A stretch of DNA of 12,555 nucleotides, from UHGV virus genome UHGV-0136485. One strand, written 5' to 3'. The notes below the pieces were generated by a model. That model saw nothing but the letters and a program-made list of their open reading frames with translations, made no database searches and was not told the DNA's origin. This document shows, one piece after another, positions 3,503 through 11,880 of this stretch. Source of the DNA: a virus. Numbering within the stretch: the stretch's first letter is position 1; the number at the start of each line of letters is the position of its first letter. The position numbers were made by a program, and so were the translations under genes.

Positions 3503-4145
3503 TGGCAGCAAATACCGAAATATTTGGGTAGTTGGCGATCTGCACGGATGCTACACGAACCTGATGAAAAAACTGGAGACGATAGGATTCGACACCAAAA
3601 AAGACCTGCTTATCTCGGTTGGCGATTTGGTTGATCGTGGTGCAGAGAACGTTGAATGCCTGGAATTAATCACATTCCCCTGGTTCAGAGCTGTACGTGG
3701 AAACCATGAGCAAATGATGATTGATGGCTTATCAGAGCGCGGAAACGTCAATCACTGGCTGCTTAATGGCGGTGGCTGGTTCTTTAATCTCGATTACGAC
3801 AAAGAAATTCTGGCTAAAGCTCTTGCCCATAAAGCAGAAGAACTTCCGTTAATCATCGAACTGGTGAGCAAAGGTAAAAAATATGTCATCTGCCACGCCG
3901 ATTATCCCTGTGACGAATACGAGTTTGGAAAGCCAGTTGATCATCAGCAGGTAATCTGGAACCGCGAACGAATCAGCAACTCACAAGACGGGATCGTGAA
4001 AAAAATCAAAGGCGCGGACACGTTTATCTTTGGTCATACGCCAGCAGTGAAACCACTTAAATTTGCCAACCAAATGTATATCGATACCGGCGCAGTGTTC
4101 TGCGGAAACCTCACATTGATTCAGGTACAGGGAGAAGGCGCATGA
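3480..4145 (+). CDS. ninI: Ser/Thr protein phosphatase NinI (lambda PPase, orf-221 family)
   Basis: Calcineurin-like metallophosphatase motifs GDLHGC, GDLVDRG and GNHE. 221 aa from the ATG at 3480 ([12 protein letters not shown]...). The 23-nt overlap with ninH matches lambda. The longer ORF from 3405 is treated as an upstream extension artefact. Confidence 0.9.
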
Positions 4146-4765
4146 GACTCGAAAGCGTAGCTAAATTTCATTCGCCAAAAAGCCCGATGATGAGCGACTC
4201 ACCACGGGCTACGGCTTCCGACTCTCTTTCCGGTACTGATGTGATGGCTGCTATGGGGATGGCGCAATCACAAGCCGGATTCGGAATGGCTGCATTCTGC
4301 GGTAAGCATGAACTCAGCCAGAACGACAAACAAAAGGCTATCAACTATCTGATGCAATTTGCACACAAGGTATCGGGGAAATACCGTGGTGTGGCAAAGC
4401 TTGAAGGAAATACTAAGGCAAAGGTACTGCAAGTGCTCGCAACATTCGCTTATGCGGATTATTGCCGTAGTGCCGCGACGCCGGGGGCAAGATGCAGAGA
4501 TTGCCACGGTACAGGCCGTGCGGTTGATATAGCCAAAACGGAGCAGTGGGGGAGAGTTGTTGAGAAAGAGTGCGGAAGATGCAAAGGTGTCGGCTATTCA
4601 AGAATGCCAGCAAGCGCCGCATATCGCGCTGTAACGATGCTAATCCCAAACCTTACTCAACCCACCTGGTCACGCACTGTTAAGCCGCTGTATGACGCTC
4701 TGGTGGTGCAATGCCACAAAGAAGAGTCAATCGCAGACAACATTTTGAATGCGGTCACACGTTAG
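4142..4765 (+). CDS. Q: Late-gene antiterminator Q (lambda-type)
   Basis: 207 aa, recognised as essentially lambda Q, with the zinc-binding cluster CRDCHGTG...CGRCKG. ATGA overlap with the ninI stop. Confidence 0.95.
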
Positions 4766-4807: not shown

Positions 4808-4850
4808 TTGACTTTTTGAATAAAGTTGGGTAAATTTGACTCAACGATGG
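4808..4850 (+). promoter_or_regulatory. pR' late promoter with overlapping qut (Q-utilisation) region
   Basis: -35 TTGACT (4808-4813), 17-bp spacer, -10 TAAATT (4831-4836), predicted +1 near 4844 (ACGATGG...). The arrangement is recognised from lambda pR'/qut. Confidence 0.6.
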
Positions 4851-4871
4851 ATAAATGCACTCGTTAAATAA

Positions 4872-4908
4872 AGCCCTGAGTTAATAGCTCGGGGCTTTTT
4901 GCGTTTTA
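4872..4908 (+). terminator. tR'-like intrinsic terminator ending a short (~60-nt) pR' leader transcript
   Basis: Stem AGCCCTGAG (4872-4880) / CTCGGGGCT (4888-4896) with one G-U pair, 7-nt loop, then TTTTTGCGTTTT. Confidence 0.6.
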
Positions 4909-6427: not shown

Positions 6428-6458
6428 TTTTTTTGCAAATCACAAAGTCAATTTAATG

Positions 6459-6485
6459 AGCCTCGCGAAAAGCGGGGCTTTTTTA
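6459..6485 (+). terminator. Rho-independent terminator downstream of the lysis cassette
   Basis: Stem AGCCTCGC (6459-6466) / GCGGGGCT (6472-6479) with one U-G pair, GAAAA loop, then TTTTTT. Confidence 0.65.
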
Positions 6486-6627
6486 TGTCCGCAGTAAACG
6501 CGCATCTCACGCGCATATTAACGAGAGCCTTTCAGTAAGCGAGCCTGAGAAATGCCGTTATAGGTGGCGACCTCTCTCGGGCGGCTTTTCTGTGAGACAG
6601 GCTCACTTTCTAAAAGGTAAAGACGCT

Positions 6628-7125
6628 ATGAAAGCAATCACGCTTTTTAATACACCGATCCGTGTTGATGAATCAGGAATGATCTGCCTCACTGATATGT
6701 GGAAAGCCAGTGGTAAAAGTGAATCTGAATCTCCGTACCACTACCTGCGAAACAAGCAGACCAAAGAGTTCTTAGCCGAGCTGGAGAAAAACCACGAATC
6801 TGTGGTTTTTACTGAGCGCGGTGTACACGGTGGAACATATGGCGGGAAGTTTGTTGCTTACGATTATGCGGCTTGGTTAAACCCCGGGTTCAAGTACGCG
6901 GCCTATAAAGTCCTCGATGACTACTTCACCGGAGAACTTCAGCATCGCAACAGCTTAAGTGCGCAGCTCAACATGAAATGTCATGAGTTTGACCAGAAGA
7001 AAGACATGGCGAGCTTCTGCGGACAAGGGCTGGCAGCATGGCGCTATACGAAGCCAGTGTTGGTCGCTGAGATTAACTCCCTGGCTAACCAGCTGCAGAT
7101 TACGATCCCCGGGCTTCCGGGATGA
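6628..7125 (+). CDS. KilA-N (APSES-type) domain DNA-binding protein, 165 aa
   Basis: N-terminus ITLFNTPIRVDESGMICLTDMWKASGKS...YLRNKQTKEFLAELEK resembles KilA-N/Bro-N-type phage DNA-binding domains. This is pattern recognition, not a search result. ATG 6628 is preferred over the GTG at 6592, which has no RBS. Confidence 0.6.
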   Translation: MKAITLFNTPIRVDESGMICLTDMWKASGKSESESPYHYLRNKQTKEFLAELEKNHESVVFTERGVHGGTYGGKFVAYDYAAWLNPGFKYAAYKVLDDYFTGELQHRNSLSAQLNMKCHEFDQKKDMASFCGQGLAAWRYTKPVLVAEINSLANQLQITIPGLPG

Positions 7126-7379
7126 GTGATCGTGTTATTGAATGCGCCTCCAGAGCGGGGCGCGACTTCTCAGAGTTCATGAAAGGCGAGAAGGGCATGA
7201 TGGAAGCATTGGCCTCGGTGGATGAGTTTGGCGAGCAGCTGCGCCTCAACGGCTGTGTCAATCATCACTTTGTTAGCTACATGATGCGTAACTCGATCAT
7301 GCAGGCATTCATGGACATGGCAAAAGCCGAGAGGAAAGAAGAGCGCCGGCGTAAGCGAGCGGAAGCAAAAGCGAAGTAG
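7122..7379 (+). CDS. Hypothetical 85-aa protein with a basic C-terminal tail, coupled to the KilA-N gene
   Basis: ATGA overlap with the upstream stop. C-terminus AKAERKEERRRKRAEAKAK is highly charged. No motif recognised. Confidence 0.55.
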   Translation: MSDRVIECASRAGRDFSEFMKGEKGMMEALASVDEFGEQLRLNGCVNHHFVSYMMRNSIMQAFMDMAKAERKEERRRKRAEAKAK

Positions 7380-7735
7380 CCATTACAAAGCCCATCTACT
7401 GGTGGGCTTGATAATGAAACCGTGATTTACATCCCTCACAATCCAGGTATGTAAAAGCTGGATCATGCGAGAACGGATTTAACTAAATCTGTGCGCCACC
7501 AGTTAACGGCAGTACAGCGAAACAACCCAAGCCAGTAAGTGGGGAAATAACACTGGCAGCCACTGAAAGATGAACCTCCTGCCTTATGGCAAAAAAGATT
7601 CTTTGTGGTGGCGGACTGATGGAAAGACATCGGTTATTGCAGAGGCCATTCAATGAGTGGTCTCGACAATGGCTTATACCCTACACGGGATAACTTAACT
7701 GATATCCCTTTTAACGGATAAACGGAGCACAAATA

Positions 7736-8233
7736 ATGGCAAAGCTCACCGACAAACAAGAGCTGTTTGCCCATCCGGATGATGTGTATGTCGGAGAGTG
7801 TGTGATTTATACCGGCTACATAAATAAGCGAGGGTATGGGCAGAAGCACATTTCACGAAAGCCGCACTACGCACATCGAATCGCATACTGCGAAGCTAAC
7901 GGAATTTCGCTAGATAGCATCAAGGGCCTGGTTGTTAGGCATAAATGCGATAATCCATCATGCGTGAATCCTGACCATCTGATTATAGGTACTGTCGCTG
8001 ACAATAATCGTGACAGGTCAAGGCGAGGCAGAAACTCATACCCTGACCGTTCAGGTGAAAAGAACGGAATGGCGAAATTAAAAGAGTGCGATGTCATCTG
8101 CATTCGCCTCGAGTATGTGCGCGGGAGTGTAGGTAATGGGCTTAGGTCTTTAGCAAAGAGATATGGCGTATCCACTACCATGATTGCTGACATCGTTAAT
8201 CATAGAAATTGGAGCAATGTTTCGGAGGTGTGA
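7736..8233 (+). CDS. HNH endonuclease (HNH_3-type) with a C-terminal helix-turn-helix-like region
   Basis: Motifs HYAHRIAY...VVRHKCDNPSCVNPDHLIIGTVADNNRD are typical of phage HNH nucleases. GGAG lies 9 nt upstream of the ATG. Sits immediately upstream of the terminase genes. Confidence 0.85.
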   Translation: MAKLTDKQELFAHPDDVYVGECVIYTGYINKRGYGQKHISRKPHYAHRIAYCEANGISLDSIKGLVVRHKCDNPSCVNPDHLIIGTVADNNRDRSRRGRNSYPDRSGEKNGMAKLKECDVICIRLEYVRGSVGNGLRSLAKRYGVSTTMIADIVNHRNWSNVSEV

Positions 8234-8234
8234 T

Positions 8235-8789
8235 TTGAAACAGCTCACACCTAAGCAGGAACTGTTCTGCAGGGAATATTTAAAAGATTTAAACGCCACT
8301 CAGGCAGCTATCAGGGCGGGCTACAGCGAGAAAACTGCTCGCGCCACTGGTAGCGAGAACCTGTCAAAACCTGACATAGCAGATCGCATTGCTGAGCTAA
8401 AGGCTGAACGCAATGAAGAGGTAGGTATAGACGCTGCCTATGTATTGCGACGGCTGACTGAAATCGATCAGATGGACGTGCTGGATATCCTGCTTGCCAA
8501 TGGCGAACTGAAGCCGATTAAAGACTGGCCTAAGGTGTGGCGTACAACGCTATCAGGAATGGATGTCGTCGAGATGGCATCAGCAGATAGTGCTGCTCTC
8601 CTGAAGAAAATCAAATGGCCTGATAAGGTTAAAAACCTTGAGTTGCTCGGGCGTCATGTTTCTGTTCAGGCGTTTAAAGACAACGTCAAAAATGAAGTGA
8701 CTGGTGCTGACGGAGGACCAGTCAGAACAGAAATTACCAACTTAACGCCGGAGCAGGCTGCAGAGGCGTATAGAAAAATGATGGGCTAA
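8235..8789 (+). CDS. Terminase small subunit (Terminase_2-like)
   Basis: N-terminus [48 protein letters not shown] fits the terminase small-subunit DNA-binding domain. Start is uncertain: TTG 8235 has a GGAGG 6 nt upstream; in-frame ATGs at 8217 and 8184 would overlap the HNH gene by 17 or 50 nt. Confidence 0.8.
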
Positions 8790-8791
8790 GT

Positions 8792-10414
8792 ATGCCGTTA
8801 CCATTCCCCTTCGATTTTAAACATCCTGATTACCAGATGGTTTTTGAATGGCGGATGGAACGCCTACAGCGCATTCGCCAGAATCCTGAAATATTGCCTG
8901 CACTAAAACAGTTTTACCGAACCAATCCGGCTCAGTTCATCATCGACTGGGGCATGACAACGGACCCGCGTAATATTGATTATGGCCTGCCGGTGACCAT
9001 TCCGTTTTTACTCTTCCCTAAGCAGGAGGAGTGGATCCACTGGATTATGGAACGCTGGGGTAATCGGGAGAATGGTATTACCGAAAAATCCCGTGAAATG
9101 GGGCTCAGTTGGACCGCGATCGGGCTGGCATGCTCGCTTTGTCTCTTCAACAAAGAAATGGTTATCGGTTTCGGCTCCCGTAAAGAGGAATACGTCGACA
9201 GCACCGGTGACCCGAAAGCATTGTTCTGGAAGGCGCGCAAGTTCGTGGAAACACTACCTGTAGAGTTTCGTGGTTCGTGGGACGAGAAGAAGCATGCGCC
9301 GTATATGCGCGTTGAGTTTCCAGATACTGGTGCCGTTATCAAAGGCGAGGCTGGCGACAATATCGGACGTGGTGACCGTACCACGCTTTATCTGGTTGAT
9401 GAGGCTGCATTCCTTCAGCGTCCTCTGCTGATTGATGCGGCGTTGTCACAAACGACGCGTTGCCGTATTGACCTGAGTTCAGTTAACGGCATGGCGAACC
9501 CGTTCGCTCAGAAGCGTCATGGCGGGAAGATACCGGTATTCACATTCCACTGGCGGGATGATCCTCGCAAGGATGAAGAGTGGTATCGCAGGGAATGCGA
9601 GAAAATCGATAATCCGGTGGTGGTGGCACAGGAACTTGATCTGAACTACAGCGCATCAGCGGAAGGCGTCCTGATTCCATCCGAATGGGTACAGGCTGCC
9701 GTTGATGCGCATATCAAACTGGGTATCCAGCCAACAGGCAAACGACTTGGCGCGATGGATGTCGCCGACGAAGGCAGGGACAAAAATGCCTTTTCCACCC
9801 GTCACGGCTTCCTCCTGGAGAACGTGCGGGAATGGTCTGGTGTGGGCAGCGACATTTATCAGTCCGTCGAGAAGGTTTTCGGCTTTTGCGAACAGGACAA
9901 CCTCGAAGAGTTTCGCTTTGACGAGGACGGGCTGGGCGCTGGCGTTCGCGGCGATGCACGCGCTATCAACGAACTGCGTAACGCTGCGCGCCGACCGTCA
10001 ATACTCGCCACACCGTTTCGAGGTAGTGGCGCGGTATTTGATCCGGACGACGAAGCGGTGCGCGGTGACAACGGACAGGCCGCCCGCCTGAACAAGGACT
10101 TCTTCGCTAACGCCAAAGCCCAGAGCTGGTGGCGGTTACGTAAACTTTTTCAGAATACCTGGCGCGCCGTGGTTGAAGGTATGGATTACAACCCGGACGA
10201 AATCATCTCAATCAGCAGTAGCATGGCACTCAAAGATAAACTCATCATCGAGCTTTCGCAGCCGACCTATTCCATTAATGGTGTGGGAAAAATCGTTATT
10301 GATAAACAGCCTGATGGAACCCGGTCGCCAAACCTTGCCGACTCGGTGATGATCAGCTACGCGCCAATGAATTCAGCCCTGAACATCTGGGAGCTGCTAG
10401 GGAGACAGGCCTGA
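8792..10414 (+). CDS. Terminase large subunit (ATPase/nuclease), 540 aa
   Basis: Position directly after the small subunit and typical size. Deviant P-loop-like KSREMGLS (compare lambda gpA-type KSxxxGxS) and Walker B-like LYLVDEAAF. Assignment is by context and motifs. Confidence 0.8.
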
Positions 10415-11880
10415 TGGCACGAAACAAACAAGCCCTGCGGAGAACTGCGCAGGCCACCGCTGATGGCTATGAGAACTTTGTCGCCCGCGTGGGAATGCAG
10501 ACGCCTAACCAGCACTCAGCATCGACCTACCGGGCTAACTTCACCAGCCGCAACCGCATGCTGGTGGAATGGTCCTATCGTTCGTCCTGGATCATCGGCG
10601 AAGCGGTCGACGCTATCCCGGATGATATGACCCGCAAAGGCATTCGCATCACTTCGGAAATTGATGCAAAAGATCGTGGCATTCTCGAATCACAACTGGA
10701 TGAGTTGCAAATCTGGGATGCGCTGAACGACGTGCTGAAATGGTCTCGCCTCTACGGCGGCGCGGTCGGCTTCATCATGATCGAGGGGCAGGCACCAATG
10801 ACCCCGCTGCGGCTCGAAACCATTGGAGAAGGCAAGTTTAAGGGCATTCTCCCGCTCGACCGCTGGATGATTAACCCGGTCCTGACCCGCCGCATTAAAG
10901 AGATGGGGCCAGATCTCGGCAAACCTGAGTTTTACGACGTGGTGACCACTGCAACGGGCATCCCGGCCTGGCGCATCCATCACAGCCGCCTGATTCGCTT
11001 CGACGGGGTGACGCTGCCATTCCAGCAGAAGATGACCGAAAACGAATGGGGAATGTCGGTTGTAGAGCGTATCTGGGATCGGCTTACTGCGTTCGACAGC
11101 GCCACTGTCGGCGCGGCGCAGCTGGTCTACAAAGCGCATTTGCGTACCTACAGCGTGGAGAAGCTACGCGAGCTTATCGCACTTGGTGGTCCTGCGTATG
11201 AAGCGTTGCTGAAGAATATCGACCTGATTCGACAGTTCCAGAGCAATGAAGGCATGACGCTCATGGACTCGCGGGATAAGTTCGAAACCCACCAGTACAG
11301 CTTTAGTGGTCTGGATGACATCCTTTCACAGTTTGCAGAACAGATTAGTGGCGCTGTTGGTATCCCGCTGGTGCGCCTTTTCGGGCAGTCCCCGAAAGGC
11401 TTCTCTACCGGTGACGCAGACCTCGCCAACTATTACGACCGGGTGAGCTCGTTGCAGGAACGCCGCTTACGGCTGCCGATGCGTCGGATACTGGACATCA
11501 TGCATCGTTCGGAGCTTGGCAAGCCGCTGCCGGACGATTTCACGTTTGAGTTTAACCCGCTCTGGCAAATGTCTGACGTTGACCGCTCAACGGTGGCCGT
11601 AAATACCACCACCGCAATCAGCACCGCGCTGGGCGACGGATTGATGACGCGTAAGGCGGCAATGACCGACCTACGCGAAAACTCTGATGTCACCGGCATC
11701 GGGGCATCTATTACCGACGAGGATATCGAGAATGCCGAAGACGAAGCGCCGCCAGGCATCGGCGAACTTGACGACAAACCGCCAGAGCCGCCAGGCGGAG
11801 ATCCGATATCGAACGAGCCTACGGCAGATAGCGCGGGCGGTCGGAGACATCGTAAATGGTCGCTACGATGGTTCAAATGA
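10414..11880 (+). CDS. Portal protein (DUF1073-like), 488 aa
   Basis: ATG overlaps the terminase large-subunit stop (TGATGG). Size and position after terminase fit a portal. Acidic/Pro-rich C-terminal tail (DEDIENAEDEAPPGIGELDDKPPEPPGGD). Confidence 0.75.
   Translation: MARNKQALRRTAQATADGYENFVARVGMQTPNQHSASTYRANFTSRNRMLVEWSYRSSWIIGEAVDAIPDDMTRKGIRITSEIDAKDRGILESQLDELQIWDALNDVLKWSRLYGGAVGFIMIEGQAPMTPLRLETIGEGKFKGILPLDRWMINPVLTRRIKEMGPDLGKPEFYDVVTTATGIPAWRIHHSRLIRFDGVTLPFQQKMTENEWGMSVVERIWDRLTAFDSATVGAAQLVYKAHLRTYSVEKLRELIALGGPAYEALLKNIDLIRQFQSNEGMTLMDSRDKFETHQYSFSGLDDILSQFAEQISGAVGIPLVRLFGQSPKGFSTGDADLANYYDRVSSLQERRLRLPMRRILDIMHRSELGKPLPDDFTFEFNPLWQMSDVDRSTVAVNTTTAISTALGDGLMTRKAAMTDLRENSDVTGIGASITDEDIENAEDEAPPGIGELDDKPPEPPGGDPISNEPTADSAGGRRHRKWSLRWFK

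Follow-up and report, generated by a model that had tools for sequence, protein, structure and literature searches.

Introduction

Intercistronic stem-loops and regulatory cassettes at mosaic joints are elements of an already known kind. The RNase III hairpins of the T7 R1.1 type are intercistronic and occur in phage polycistronic mRNAs, and the intercistronic 3' hairpins of the REP/BIME type stabilize the upstream mRNA. Within the modular theory of lambdoid phage evolution, the idea of "boundary sequences", or linkers, is reportedly treated by Clark et al. in 2001. In T4-type phages, PeSLs (promoter-early stem-loops), which are conserved cassettes of a promoter plus a stem-loop, mediate modular shuffling (PMC2839356, PMC4122927). 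By analogy, the PeSL is the closest published concept to the hairpin element described here.

The window is the whole 12,555-nt stretch of the viral genome UHGV-0136485 that was analyzed. The spacer under study (7380-7735) sits between an 85-aa ORF (7122-7379, TAG stop at 7377-7379), which is homologous to hkbL of HK620, and an HNH_3 gene. Its 5' neighbors are the 85-aa ORF and genes for holin, endolysin, Rz and a KilA-N protein, and we infer that the spacer is the junction of the lysis/accessory genes and the packaging-head module within a Q-dependent late transcript. It is a mosaic of a hairpin (A), a variable segment (A2), a conserved core (B), a second hairpin (C1) and a 3' leader that carries an RBS. 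What is new, and apparently undescribed, is that the first hairpin and the stronger C1 belong to a family of gene-end hairpins that bracket an empty accessory cassette and whose function we infer.

The likeness to PeSLs lies in short conserved stem-loops beside accessory ORFs in plastic regions, where recombination between copies gives insertions, deletions and replacements; the corresponding cases here are the difference between phage 2851 and the window, and the gene 66 cassette found between B and the hairpin. However, PeSLs join a strong sigma-70 early promoter to an efficient terminator, whereas the spacer shows neither a promoter-like site nor a U-tract. Its element lies inside a Q-antiterminated late operon and abuts stop codons, and the conserved part is the stem base AUURCA/GAYAAU with a CA/GA loop. 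Like the T7 R1.1 sites, the spacer hairpins have an internal loop between lower and upper stems (8 + 10 bp and a 2x2 loop in C1) and a sense orientation at gene ends, such that a cut would leave a protective 3' hairpin upstream. In contrast to those sites, A-type hairpins have a lower stem of 4-5 bp and about 16 bp-equivalents in total, which is short for RNase III, and the spacer hairpins have no sequence similarity to T7 sites. The shape of C1 is compatible with a phage RNase III site, as a candidate only. A stable hairpin just 3' of a cistron within an operon, in sense orientation and without a U-tract, also recalls REP/BIME elements, but the spacer family is phage-borne, has another sequence and occurs in 1-2 copies per genome instead of hundreds. 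With the boundary sequences it shares the placement of short conserved sequences at mosaic joints between lambdoid modules. However, bsq7 is annotated inside gene 63 in the part of the Sf6 record examined, not at the spacer, and the spacer element goes beyond a homology patch, being a folded RNA-type hairpin with covariation.

Results

Coding status and organization of the spacer

The preliminary description had held that no ORF above about 30 codons with a credible start lies in the spacer. Taken literally this is incorrect, as a mechanical ORF listing returns ORFs of 55 and 56 aa on the minus strand and of 35, 28 and 22 aa on the plus strand, but its substance, that the spacer does not code for protein, is borne out by 68 distinct homologues. 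In these sequences, the 35-, 28-, 55- and 56-aa ORFs are disrupted, by stops or frameshifts, or their ends vary. The start of the 22-aa ORF is missing from the Sf6 C' allele, and its common polymorphisms fall on codon positions 1, 2 and 3 in the ratio 2:7:1, with 7/10 at position 2. Since these ORFs are either interrupted or vary without codon-position bias, the spacer is non-coding, and small protein genes at any of the five were rejected on the same grounds.

The blocks listed in Table 1 come from local BLAST comparisons with 13 annotated phage loci and with 120 loci from IMG/VR.

Table 1. Features of the spacer and of the genes that follow it (positions in the window)
Feature	Position	Strand	Description
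Hairpin A	7382..7415	+	ATTA-CA-AAGCCCATC-TACT-GGTGGGCTT-GA-TAAT; R1 51.8 bits, E = 6e-11
Block A2	7421..7496	+	Variable filler; fold not significant, z = -1.8
Block B (core)	7497-7631	+	B1, then hairpins B2 and B3
Block B1	7497..7557	+	Sequence conserved, unstructured; z = +0.4
Block B2	7559..7612	+	Long interrupted hairpin; z = -2.7 (+), -2.8 (-)
Hairpin B3	7614..7635	+	GACUGAUG-GAAAGA-CAUCGGUU; -10.3 kcal/mol, z = -4.4; minus strand -3.1 kcal/mol
Insertion point	7632	.	About 410 bp accessory cassette in Sf6, Huey, IME10, Stx2_112991
Block C	7633-7722	+	Hairpin C1, then leader with weak GGGAUA hairpin
Hairpin C1	7636..7670	+	ATTG-CA-GAGGCCATTC-AAT-GAGTGGTCTC-GA-CAAT; R1 45.3 bits, E = 4e-9
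3' leader	7672..7722	+	Common to all contexts; contains weak GGGAUA/UAUCCC hairpin
RBS and start	7723..7738	+	GGAG 7725-7728, ATG 7736, first packaging-module gene
HNH_3 gene	7736-8233		First gene 3' of the spacer
Terminase_2 small subunit (TerS)	8235-8789		After the HNH_3 gene
Presumed large terminase subunit	8792-10414		Without Pfam match; portal gene next

Hairpin A begins 2 nt past the TAG of the 85-aa gene. Its inner part is the hairpin that had been described at the start of the spacer, and the stem AAGCCCATC (7388-7396), the loop TACT and the second arm GGTGGGCTT (7401-7409) are indeed present, without a U-tract. Beyond a 2x2 internal loop, the stem continues as CAUUA/UAAUG (7381-7416), giving a 5 + 2 + 9 layout with a folding energy of -19.9 kcal/mol (z = -5.0, equalled by 0/200 shuffles). 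The A2 block that follows is carried by HK620, HK106 and Sf6 and is missing in HK97, mEp234, ES18, phage L and Huey. In P22, B1 begins directly after the stop of rha, and in ES18 B1 is all that is retained of block B. An origin of the spacer as a remnant of the rha gene was considered and discarded, as the P22 match starts only at the last 10 bp of rha.

B2 folds similarly on both strands and has a terminator-like site on the minus strand at 7596..7575; a leftward terminator is annotated at the matching place in the phage L record. B3 is specific to the plus strand, and 8/8 of its pairs are invariant among the 68 homologues. The cassette inserted at 7632 in Sf6 encodes gene 66 (Pfam Phage_gp49_66), and the hairpin equivalent to C1 begins there 2 nt past the gene 66 stop, whereas the C1 copy of the window has no ORF directly upstream. 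The outer stem of C1 reaches 7632-7675, with 8 + 10 bp around the 2x2 loop, at -23.1 kcal/mol (z = -7.1) on the plus strand compared with -10.2 kcal/mol on the minus strand, and pairing is kept in all its common polymorphisms. This hairpin, the strongest of the spacer, and the one at 7614-7635 were absent from the preliminary description. The last hairpin described there, GGGATA/TATCCC followed by TTTT, does exist, although the coordinates given for it were 1-2 nt off; with arms at 7687-7692 and 7703-7708 and TTTT at 7709-7712, it is weak (-8.3 kcal/mol, z = -2.3). Homology among the differing downstream modules breaks at 7722-7744.

The spacer as a whole folds at -117.9 kcal/mol on the plus strand, compared with -86.4 +/- 5.6 in dinucleotide shuffles (z = -5.6), and with z = -3.5 on the minus strand. 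The hairpins at 7632-7675 and 7614-7635 rely on G-U pairs and reach only -10.2 and -3.1 kcal/mol on the minus strand. Because C1 and B3 collapse there, the structured strand is that of the late transcript.

A family of hairpins next to stop codons

Hairpin A, C1 and the hairpin after gene 66 of Sf6 share one architecture, and the differences between the copies are compensatory. The family frame is AUURCA-stem-loop-stem-GAYAAU, in which an outer stem (AUUA/UAAU or AUUG/CAAU) and a 2x2 CA/GA internal loop carry an inner stem of 9-10 bp and a loop of 3-6 nt. In an alignment of 33 variants from loci anchored on block B1 (A4), 97.6% of the cells pair, compared with 87.4% in shuffles (reached by 0/500); both sides change in 8/14 pairs, and controls slid along the alignment are low.

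IMG/VR was then scanned for the family frame with a different first stem base, which gave at least 120 contigs and at least 59 distinct contexts with perfect 8-10 bp stems of many different sequences. Nearly all of the matches listed lie between a gene ending in ...VTVTAA and a gene starting with MTP(I/L)LEIGE. Providencia phage PSTNGR2lys, which is annotated, has the hairpin starting 1 nt past the stop of the major tail protein V gene, and a hairpin after the major tail gene is found in at least 120 IMG/VR contigs and in many other Enterobacterales phages. In lambda, the V-G gap is only 15 nt long and holds no such hairpin. In a combined alignment of 32 variants (A5), both sides change in 10/14 pairs, and the covariation score is 0.519 compared with 0.224 in shuffles (0/500 reach it) and at most 0.18 in slid controls; the second half of A5 had been pre-selected for stems of at least 8 bp, which inflates its percentage of paired cells.

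The covariance model made from A5 (R1) finds exactly two copies in the 12.5-kb window, A and C1. Over the window and the 13 annotated phage loci, 22/22 matches are in sense orientation. The gap between stop codon and hairpin is 1-6 nt in 49/50 tail-gene contexts among the matches listed, and exactly 2 nt in 22/46 contexts at the lysis/terminase junction. A and C1 are thereby shown to be one hairpin family with strong covariation. Across phages, sequence is conserved at the flanks AUUACAAAG/CUUGAUAAU and in the CA/GA internal loop, while the inner stems are wholly turned over, and this conservation of the stem base and the loop points to recognition by some factor. A literature search on the hairpin flank sequences returned nothing relevant, and the family, which is widespread, was apparently undescribed before.

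Constraint on the core

No homologue of the B-C core with less than about 86% identity was found, so that the core can be tested only through the distribution of polymorphisms. Among the 68 distinct homologues, polymorphisms were counted as common when two or more sequences carry the minor allele; these occur in 4/93 paired columns and 21/102 unpaired ones (Fisher p = 0.00095). Each of the four stem cases, carried by 25, 4, 3 and 2 sequences, keeps the pairing (GU to AU, UG to UA, GC to GU and CG to UG), and all stem-breaking variants in the core are singletons. There is no double compensatory change in the core pairs among these 68 sequences, and the shuffle control is uninformative on this point.

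Core diversity is low, with pi of 0.010; in the same 12 loci, third codon positions give 0.118 for hkbM and 0.057 for hkbN. Reading this as strong purifying selection had to be downgraded, as the 85-aa gene is equally low. Its pi at third codon positions is 0.014, below the 0.049 of hairpin A, and differences in diversity from block to block therefore reflect mainly the recency with which each one was shared.

Distribution and mosaic joints

Megablast and blastn matches to parts of the spacer, at 90-99% identity, come from about 200 phage records, including HK620, HK97, HK022, mEp234, HK106, Sf6, P22, ST64T/L, ES18, CUS-3 and Stx phages. Parts of it are also present in 2554/5426 complete E. 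coli genomes, always unannotated. With blastn tuned for distant relatives, every homologue was at least about 86% identical.

Breakpoints recur at 7373-7381, 7422/7429, 7492-7506, 7552, 7631/7636, 7655, about 7685, 7722 and 7744, and those at 7373-7381, 7422/7429 and 7631/7636 are shown to lie at hairpin edges. The variable 5' genes (the 85-aa gene, rha, HK106_064, Sf6 gene 65 and Rz) all meet the spacer at the 5' border of A, and the 5' border of C1 is where the gene 66 cassette is attached, the order in Sf6 being B, gene 66, hairpin. In phage 2851, the 85-aa gene and hairpin A are fused straight to GGCTTATACCC..., which in the window stands after C1. Segment 7416-7670 (A2 + B + C1, 254 bp) is therefore bracketed by two hairpin copies and is present or absent as one unit. 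No Chi site was found in the spacer.

Phages that lack large parts of the spacer are nevertheless functional: 2851 is without 7416-7670, HK97 without A2, and ES18 without everything after 7552. The finding of such phages, which the preliminary description had named as evidence against a function, does speak against an essential role; since each sub-block is missing in some functional phage, any effect would be modulatory.

Packaging, promoter, terminator and small RNA signals

The spacer was earlier suggested to hold a packaging site (cos or pac). Its position just 5' of the HNH and terS genes and its inverted repeats are the sole support for a role as a cos or pac site, or as an accessory site for the adjacent terminase. 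Against this, the same spacer, with 90-99% identity, stands ahead of at least four unrelated terminase systems. The 3' neighbors are hkbM, hkbN and gene 3 (headful) in HK620, an orf80 remnant, the HNH gene gp74, cos and an unrelated TerS in HK97, orf80 and gene 3 in P22, and genes 67 and 68 in Sf6; in one E. coli and one Shimwellia genome, the spacer precedes the Terminase_2 terS of the window with the HNH gene absent. For the headful phages P22 and HK620, we take the pac sites to lie within gene 3. In the linear HK97 record (39,732 bp, ending at cos), the spacer is at about 38,637-39,053, some 680 bp before the cos end. A consensus search found no IHF-like site in the spacer, and the functional phages without large parts of it also count against this reading. 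As one and the same spacer precedes unrelated terminases of both headful and cos types, we reject the cos/pac interpretation, whose probability we consider to be close to nil.

Signals of an independent small RNA gene were also sought. ARAGORN found 0 tRNA or tmRNA genes in the window, and no Rfam family reached threshold there. With Rfam 15 at gathering threshold, the window and 13 related loci gave nothing except tRNAs elsewhere, and the AgvB, AsxR and STnc100 families stayed below gathering threshold in the same set. The best match in the spacer is RF03044 (Proteo-phage-1) at 7526-7561, with 16.8 bits compared with a gathering threshold of 42 (E = 3.7). The single-stranded flanks of that model (CCccaG ... 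AAaAACaCCGGCAGCC) resemble 7526-7561 and both come from proteobacterial phages, but both model hairpins are missing here and 13/13 related loci are below threshold. Permissive Rfam matches to snoRNA were judged spurious. The known RNAs LPR1, LPR2 and 6S of lambda, STnc6030 of BTP1, the Pas sRNAs, AgvB and AsxR all map elsewhere.

On the plus strand of the spacer there is no sigma-70 or other promoter-like site, and no canonical terminator was detected on the plus strand over 6500-8500, where a G+C-rich stem directly before a U-tract (at least 5 U in 8) was required. The sequences following A (GAUAAUGA), C1 (GGCUUAUA) and C2 (UUUUAACG) contain no such U-tract, and the GGGAUA hairpin with UUUU (7709-7712) was not scored as a terminator by the scan. 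The same operon has canonical terminators with 6-7 U at 4870-4898 (tR') and 6458-6480 (after Rz). The C>G composition of Rho rut-like sites is absent from the spacer.

Discussion

We tentatively propose, with somewhat less than even confidence, that the spacer carries cis-acting intercistronic hairpins that shape the processing or stability of the late mRNA and that double as joints for recombination around an empty accessory-gene cassette. The arrangement can be pictured as three layers. A and C1 would be frame-conserved hairpins that normally stand 1-6 nt past the stop of a late-operon gene; A2 and B would form the leader of an "empty cassette", which elsewhere consists of leader, accessory gene (gene 66 in Sf6) and hairpin; and the short 3' leader would supply the RBS of the first packaging gene. 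Folded within the mRNA, the hairpins would work in cis, either as sites of processing or as obstacles to 3' exonucleases, so that the segments on either side of a hairpin would differ in stability and expression. Here, these segments would be the upstream accessory and lysis genes and the downstream terminase and head genes, and in other phages the abundant major tail gene and its chaperone. Because the frame is conserved in sequence, we propose that the hairpin copies also act as short homology joints, at which modules and accessory cassettes could be exchanged, inserted or deleted. The role as stabilizer or processing site draws on the parallels with the RNase III sites of T7 and with 3' hairpins of the REP type. 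The results favor, in general terms, the earlier suggestion of a regulatory region: a structured or regulatory RNA is supported by the strand-specific fold, the stem-avoiding polymorphisms and the covariation of the hairpin family.

Plain termination is disfavored, since U-tract terminators are present elsewhere in the operon and none is found at A or C1. In lambda, Q-modified polymerase reads through terminators, which likewise favors processing or stability over plain termination. A more specific proposal is that the hairpins insulate, as leaky or factor-dependent terminators for polymerase that is not Q-modified, and stop accessory and leftward antisense transcripts from entering the adjacent module in lysogens. 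Genes of moron type (KilA-N, rha, gene 66) do occur between Rz and the terminase gene, UUUU comes after the last hairpin, and the leftward terminator-like site at 7596..7575 has its annotated counterpart in phage L, for which intra-operon terminators of unknown role have been discussed (PMC8022706), a precedent for insulation. However, A and C1 are without U-tracts, the plus-strand scan scores nothing where the true terminators of the operon have 6-7 U, the scan showed no promoter-like site ahead of the upstream accessory genes, and there is no C>G rut-like composition. We regard insulation as rather improbable. A trans-acting sRNA of about 220 nt, running from B to the UUUU at 7712, processed from the late transcript or made from an unrecognized promoter and pairing through B1 with mRNAs of the host or the phage, appears still a little less probable. 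The layout would fit such an RNA, with the unstructured conserved B1 (z = +0.4), stable hairpins and a final hairpin with U4, and so would its wide, unannotated occurrence in the 2554/5426 E. coli genomes. There is also a precedent, as the late and early operons of lambda give processed Hfq-bound sRNAs (bioRxiv 10.1101/2024.10.31.621285). But the U-tail is short for Hfq, B precedes a protein gene and not C1 in a third of the homologues, and the sRNA literature searched names nothing at the position of the spacer. With no Rfam match at threshold and neither a promoter-like site nor a canonical terminator on the plus strand, these scans lend no support to an independent gene for the small RNA envisaged in the preliminary description.

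The spacer might instead be a mostly neutral relic of accessory cassettes after gene loss, with the hairpins being at most DNA homology patches and the apparent conservation resulting from recent and frequent exchange of the block among lambdoid phages. This is unlikely in our estimation, but it accounts for several observations. Every sub-block is missing from some functional phage; the homologues found are at least 86% identical and come essentially from phages of E. coli, Salmonella, Shigella and Shimwellia; the 85-aa gene varies just as little, third codon positions included; other phages carry gene 66 at position 7632; and the orthologues contain no double compensatory change. Conversely, the fold is far better than in shuffles and asymmetric between the strands through G-U pairs, common polymorphisms avoid the stems or, where they fall in them, keep the pairing (p about 0.001), and the family covaries and keeps a fixed sense orientation beside stop codons in unrelated contexts. 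Neutral DNA would not preserve features of this sort.

A bolder extension, which we consider a long shot, is that the AUURCA...GAYAAU hairpin is the recognition or joining element of a late-operon accessory-gene cassette system in Enterobacterales phages. The unit of such a system may be leader-ORF-hairpin, loosely like integron attC sites or the PeSLs of T4. The stem base and CA/GA loop may be read by an RNase, an RNA-binding protein or a recombination enzyme, and the 254-bp segment 7416-7670 may be an empty cassette kept for an RNA function of its own.

The spacer occupies the principal junction at which lysis and head modules are exchanged among lambdoid phages, and the hairpin family is a testable candidate for tuning the segmental expression of a long late mRNA. 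It would also offer a physical explanation for the positions of mosaic joints and moron insertions. For annotation, a tempting but wrong cos/pac label is removed, and the R1 covariance model could be used to mark such hairpins. Parts of the block are present, unannotated, in about half of the complete E. coli genomes and in the textbook phages P22, HK97, HK022, HK620 and Sf6. The spacer is essentially limited to E. coli, Salmonella, Shigella and Shimwellia phages; in a scan of genome contigs, the matches came from E. coli and Shimwellia and otherwise only from contigs placed in MAGs of unrelated taxa, the latter probably mis-binned.

Genes flanking the spacer

The HNH gene that follows the non-coding spacer appears to be an insertion within the 5′ end of terS. 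In one E. coli genome and one Shimwellia genome, the spacer leads directly into the same terS, with no HNH gene between the two. The first ~12 codons of terS form the start of the HNH ORF (MAKLTDKQELFA), and terS restarts at 8235 through a recoded duplicate of its first codons (14 residues). As judged from the sequence, this arrangement matches the pattern seen with free-standing homing endonucleases. No similarity was found between the HNH protein of the window and gp74, the packaging-associated HNH protein of HK97.

The annotated ATG of orf118 in phage L/ST64T, equivalent to window position 7586, falls within non-coding block B of the spacer and is not preceded by a Shine-Dalgarno sequence, and the first ~37 codons correspond to an ORF that many homologues carry only in disrupted form. 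Translation probably begins at the internal MAEITALT... instead, a match to the start of orf80/hkbM type (the first packaging-module gene in P22/HK620) found after the spacer. In HK97-like phages, the first codons of a P22-type orf80/hkbM (ATGGCAGAGATTATT...) are kept immediately 3′ of the spacer, upstream of gp74; in the mEp234 record this remnant is annotated as a 45-aa 'Orf80'. The remnant looks like a relic of module exchange at the spacer joint.

In Sf6, Huey, IME10 and one Stx2 phage, an accessory cassette for a Phage_gp49_66 family protein occupies exactly spacer point 7632. In the Huey record this protein is annotated as an 'anti-CRISPR protein', a putative assignment.

Hairpins and other signals in the late operon

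The hairpin family of the spacer also occurs at tail genes. The conserved frame ATTACAAAG-stem-CTTGATAAT is retained there, and the inner stem occurs in many versions. At least 120 viral contigs carry the hairpin 1–6 nt 3′ of the major tail protein stop codon, just ahead of the RBS that serves the following tail gene; lambda has no conserved-frame hairpin after its major tail protein gene. A fourth allele lies 2 nt past the stop of an 89-aa ORF, the pair being flanked by one gene presumed to be Q-like and another presumed to encode a holin. Because of this position, the family is not confined to the terminase junction in lambdoid late operons.

Upstream in the window, a promoter-like site followed by a terminator matches what would be expected of pR′/tR′ downstream of the gene at 4142-4765, which we take to be Q. 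The two Chi sites compare with ~0.3 expected by chance, and two or more were obtained in 8 of 200 shuffles.

Features in the window and at comparison loci (L-numbers: annotated phages or IMG/VR contigs)
Feature	Position	Details
HNH gene and terS 5′ end	window 7736-8271	domains HNH_3 plus zf-His_Me_endon
Conserved-frame hairpin at tail genes	L143-L262; L265:1049-1082	IMG/VR; Providencia phage PSTNGR2lys
Fourth hairpin allele	L032:5008-5041	IMG/VR prophage; inner stem AAGCGUCUAU/AUGGGCGCUU
Two Chi sites (GCTGGTGG)	window 10125-10132 and 10560-10567	+ strand; terL/portal region
orf118	L013:1648-2004	phage L/ST64T
orf80/hkbM-type remnant	L002:3382-3472; L003:3375-3512	HK97; mEp234
Accessory cassette	window 7632; L006:2783-3163; L007:2727-3107	Phage_gp49_66 family protein; Sf6 gene 66; Huey
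Promoter-like site, then strong terminator	window 4808-4898	TTGACT-17-TAAATT; 13-bp stem plus U-tract
Second canonical terminator	window 6458-6480	just past Rz, upstream of KilA-N gene
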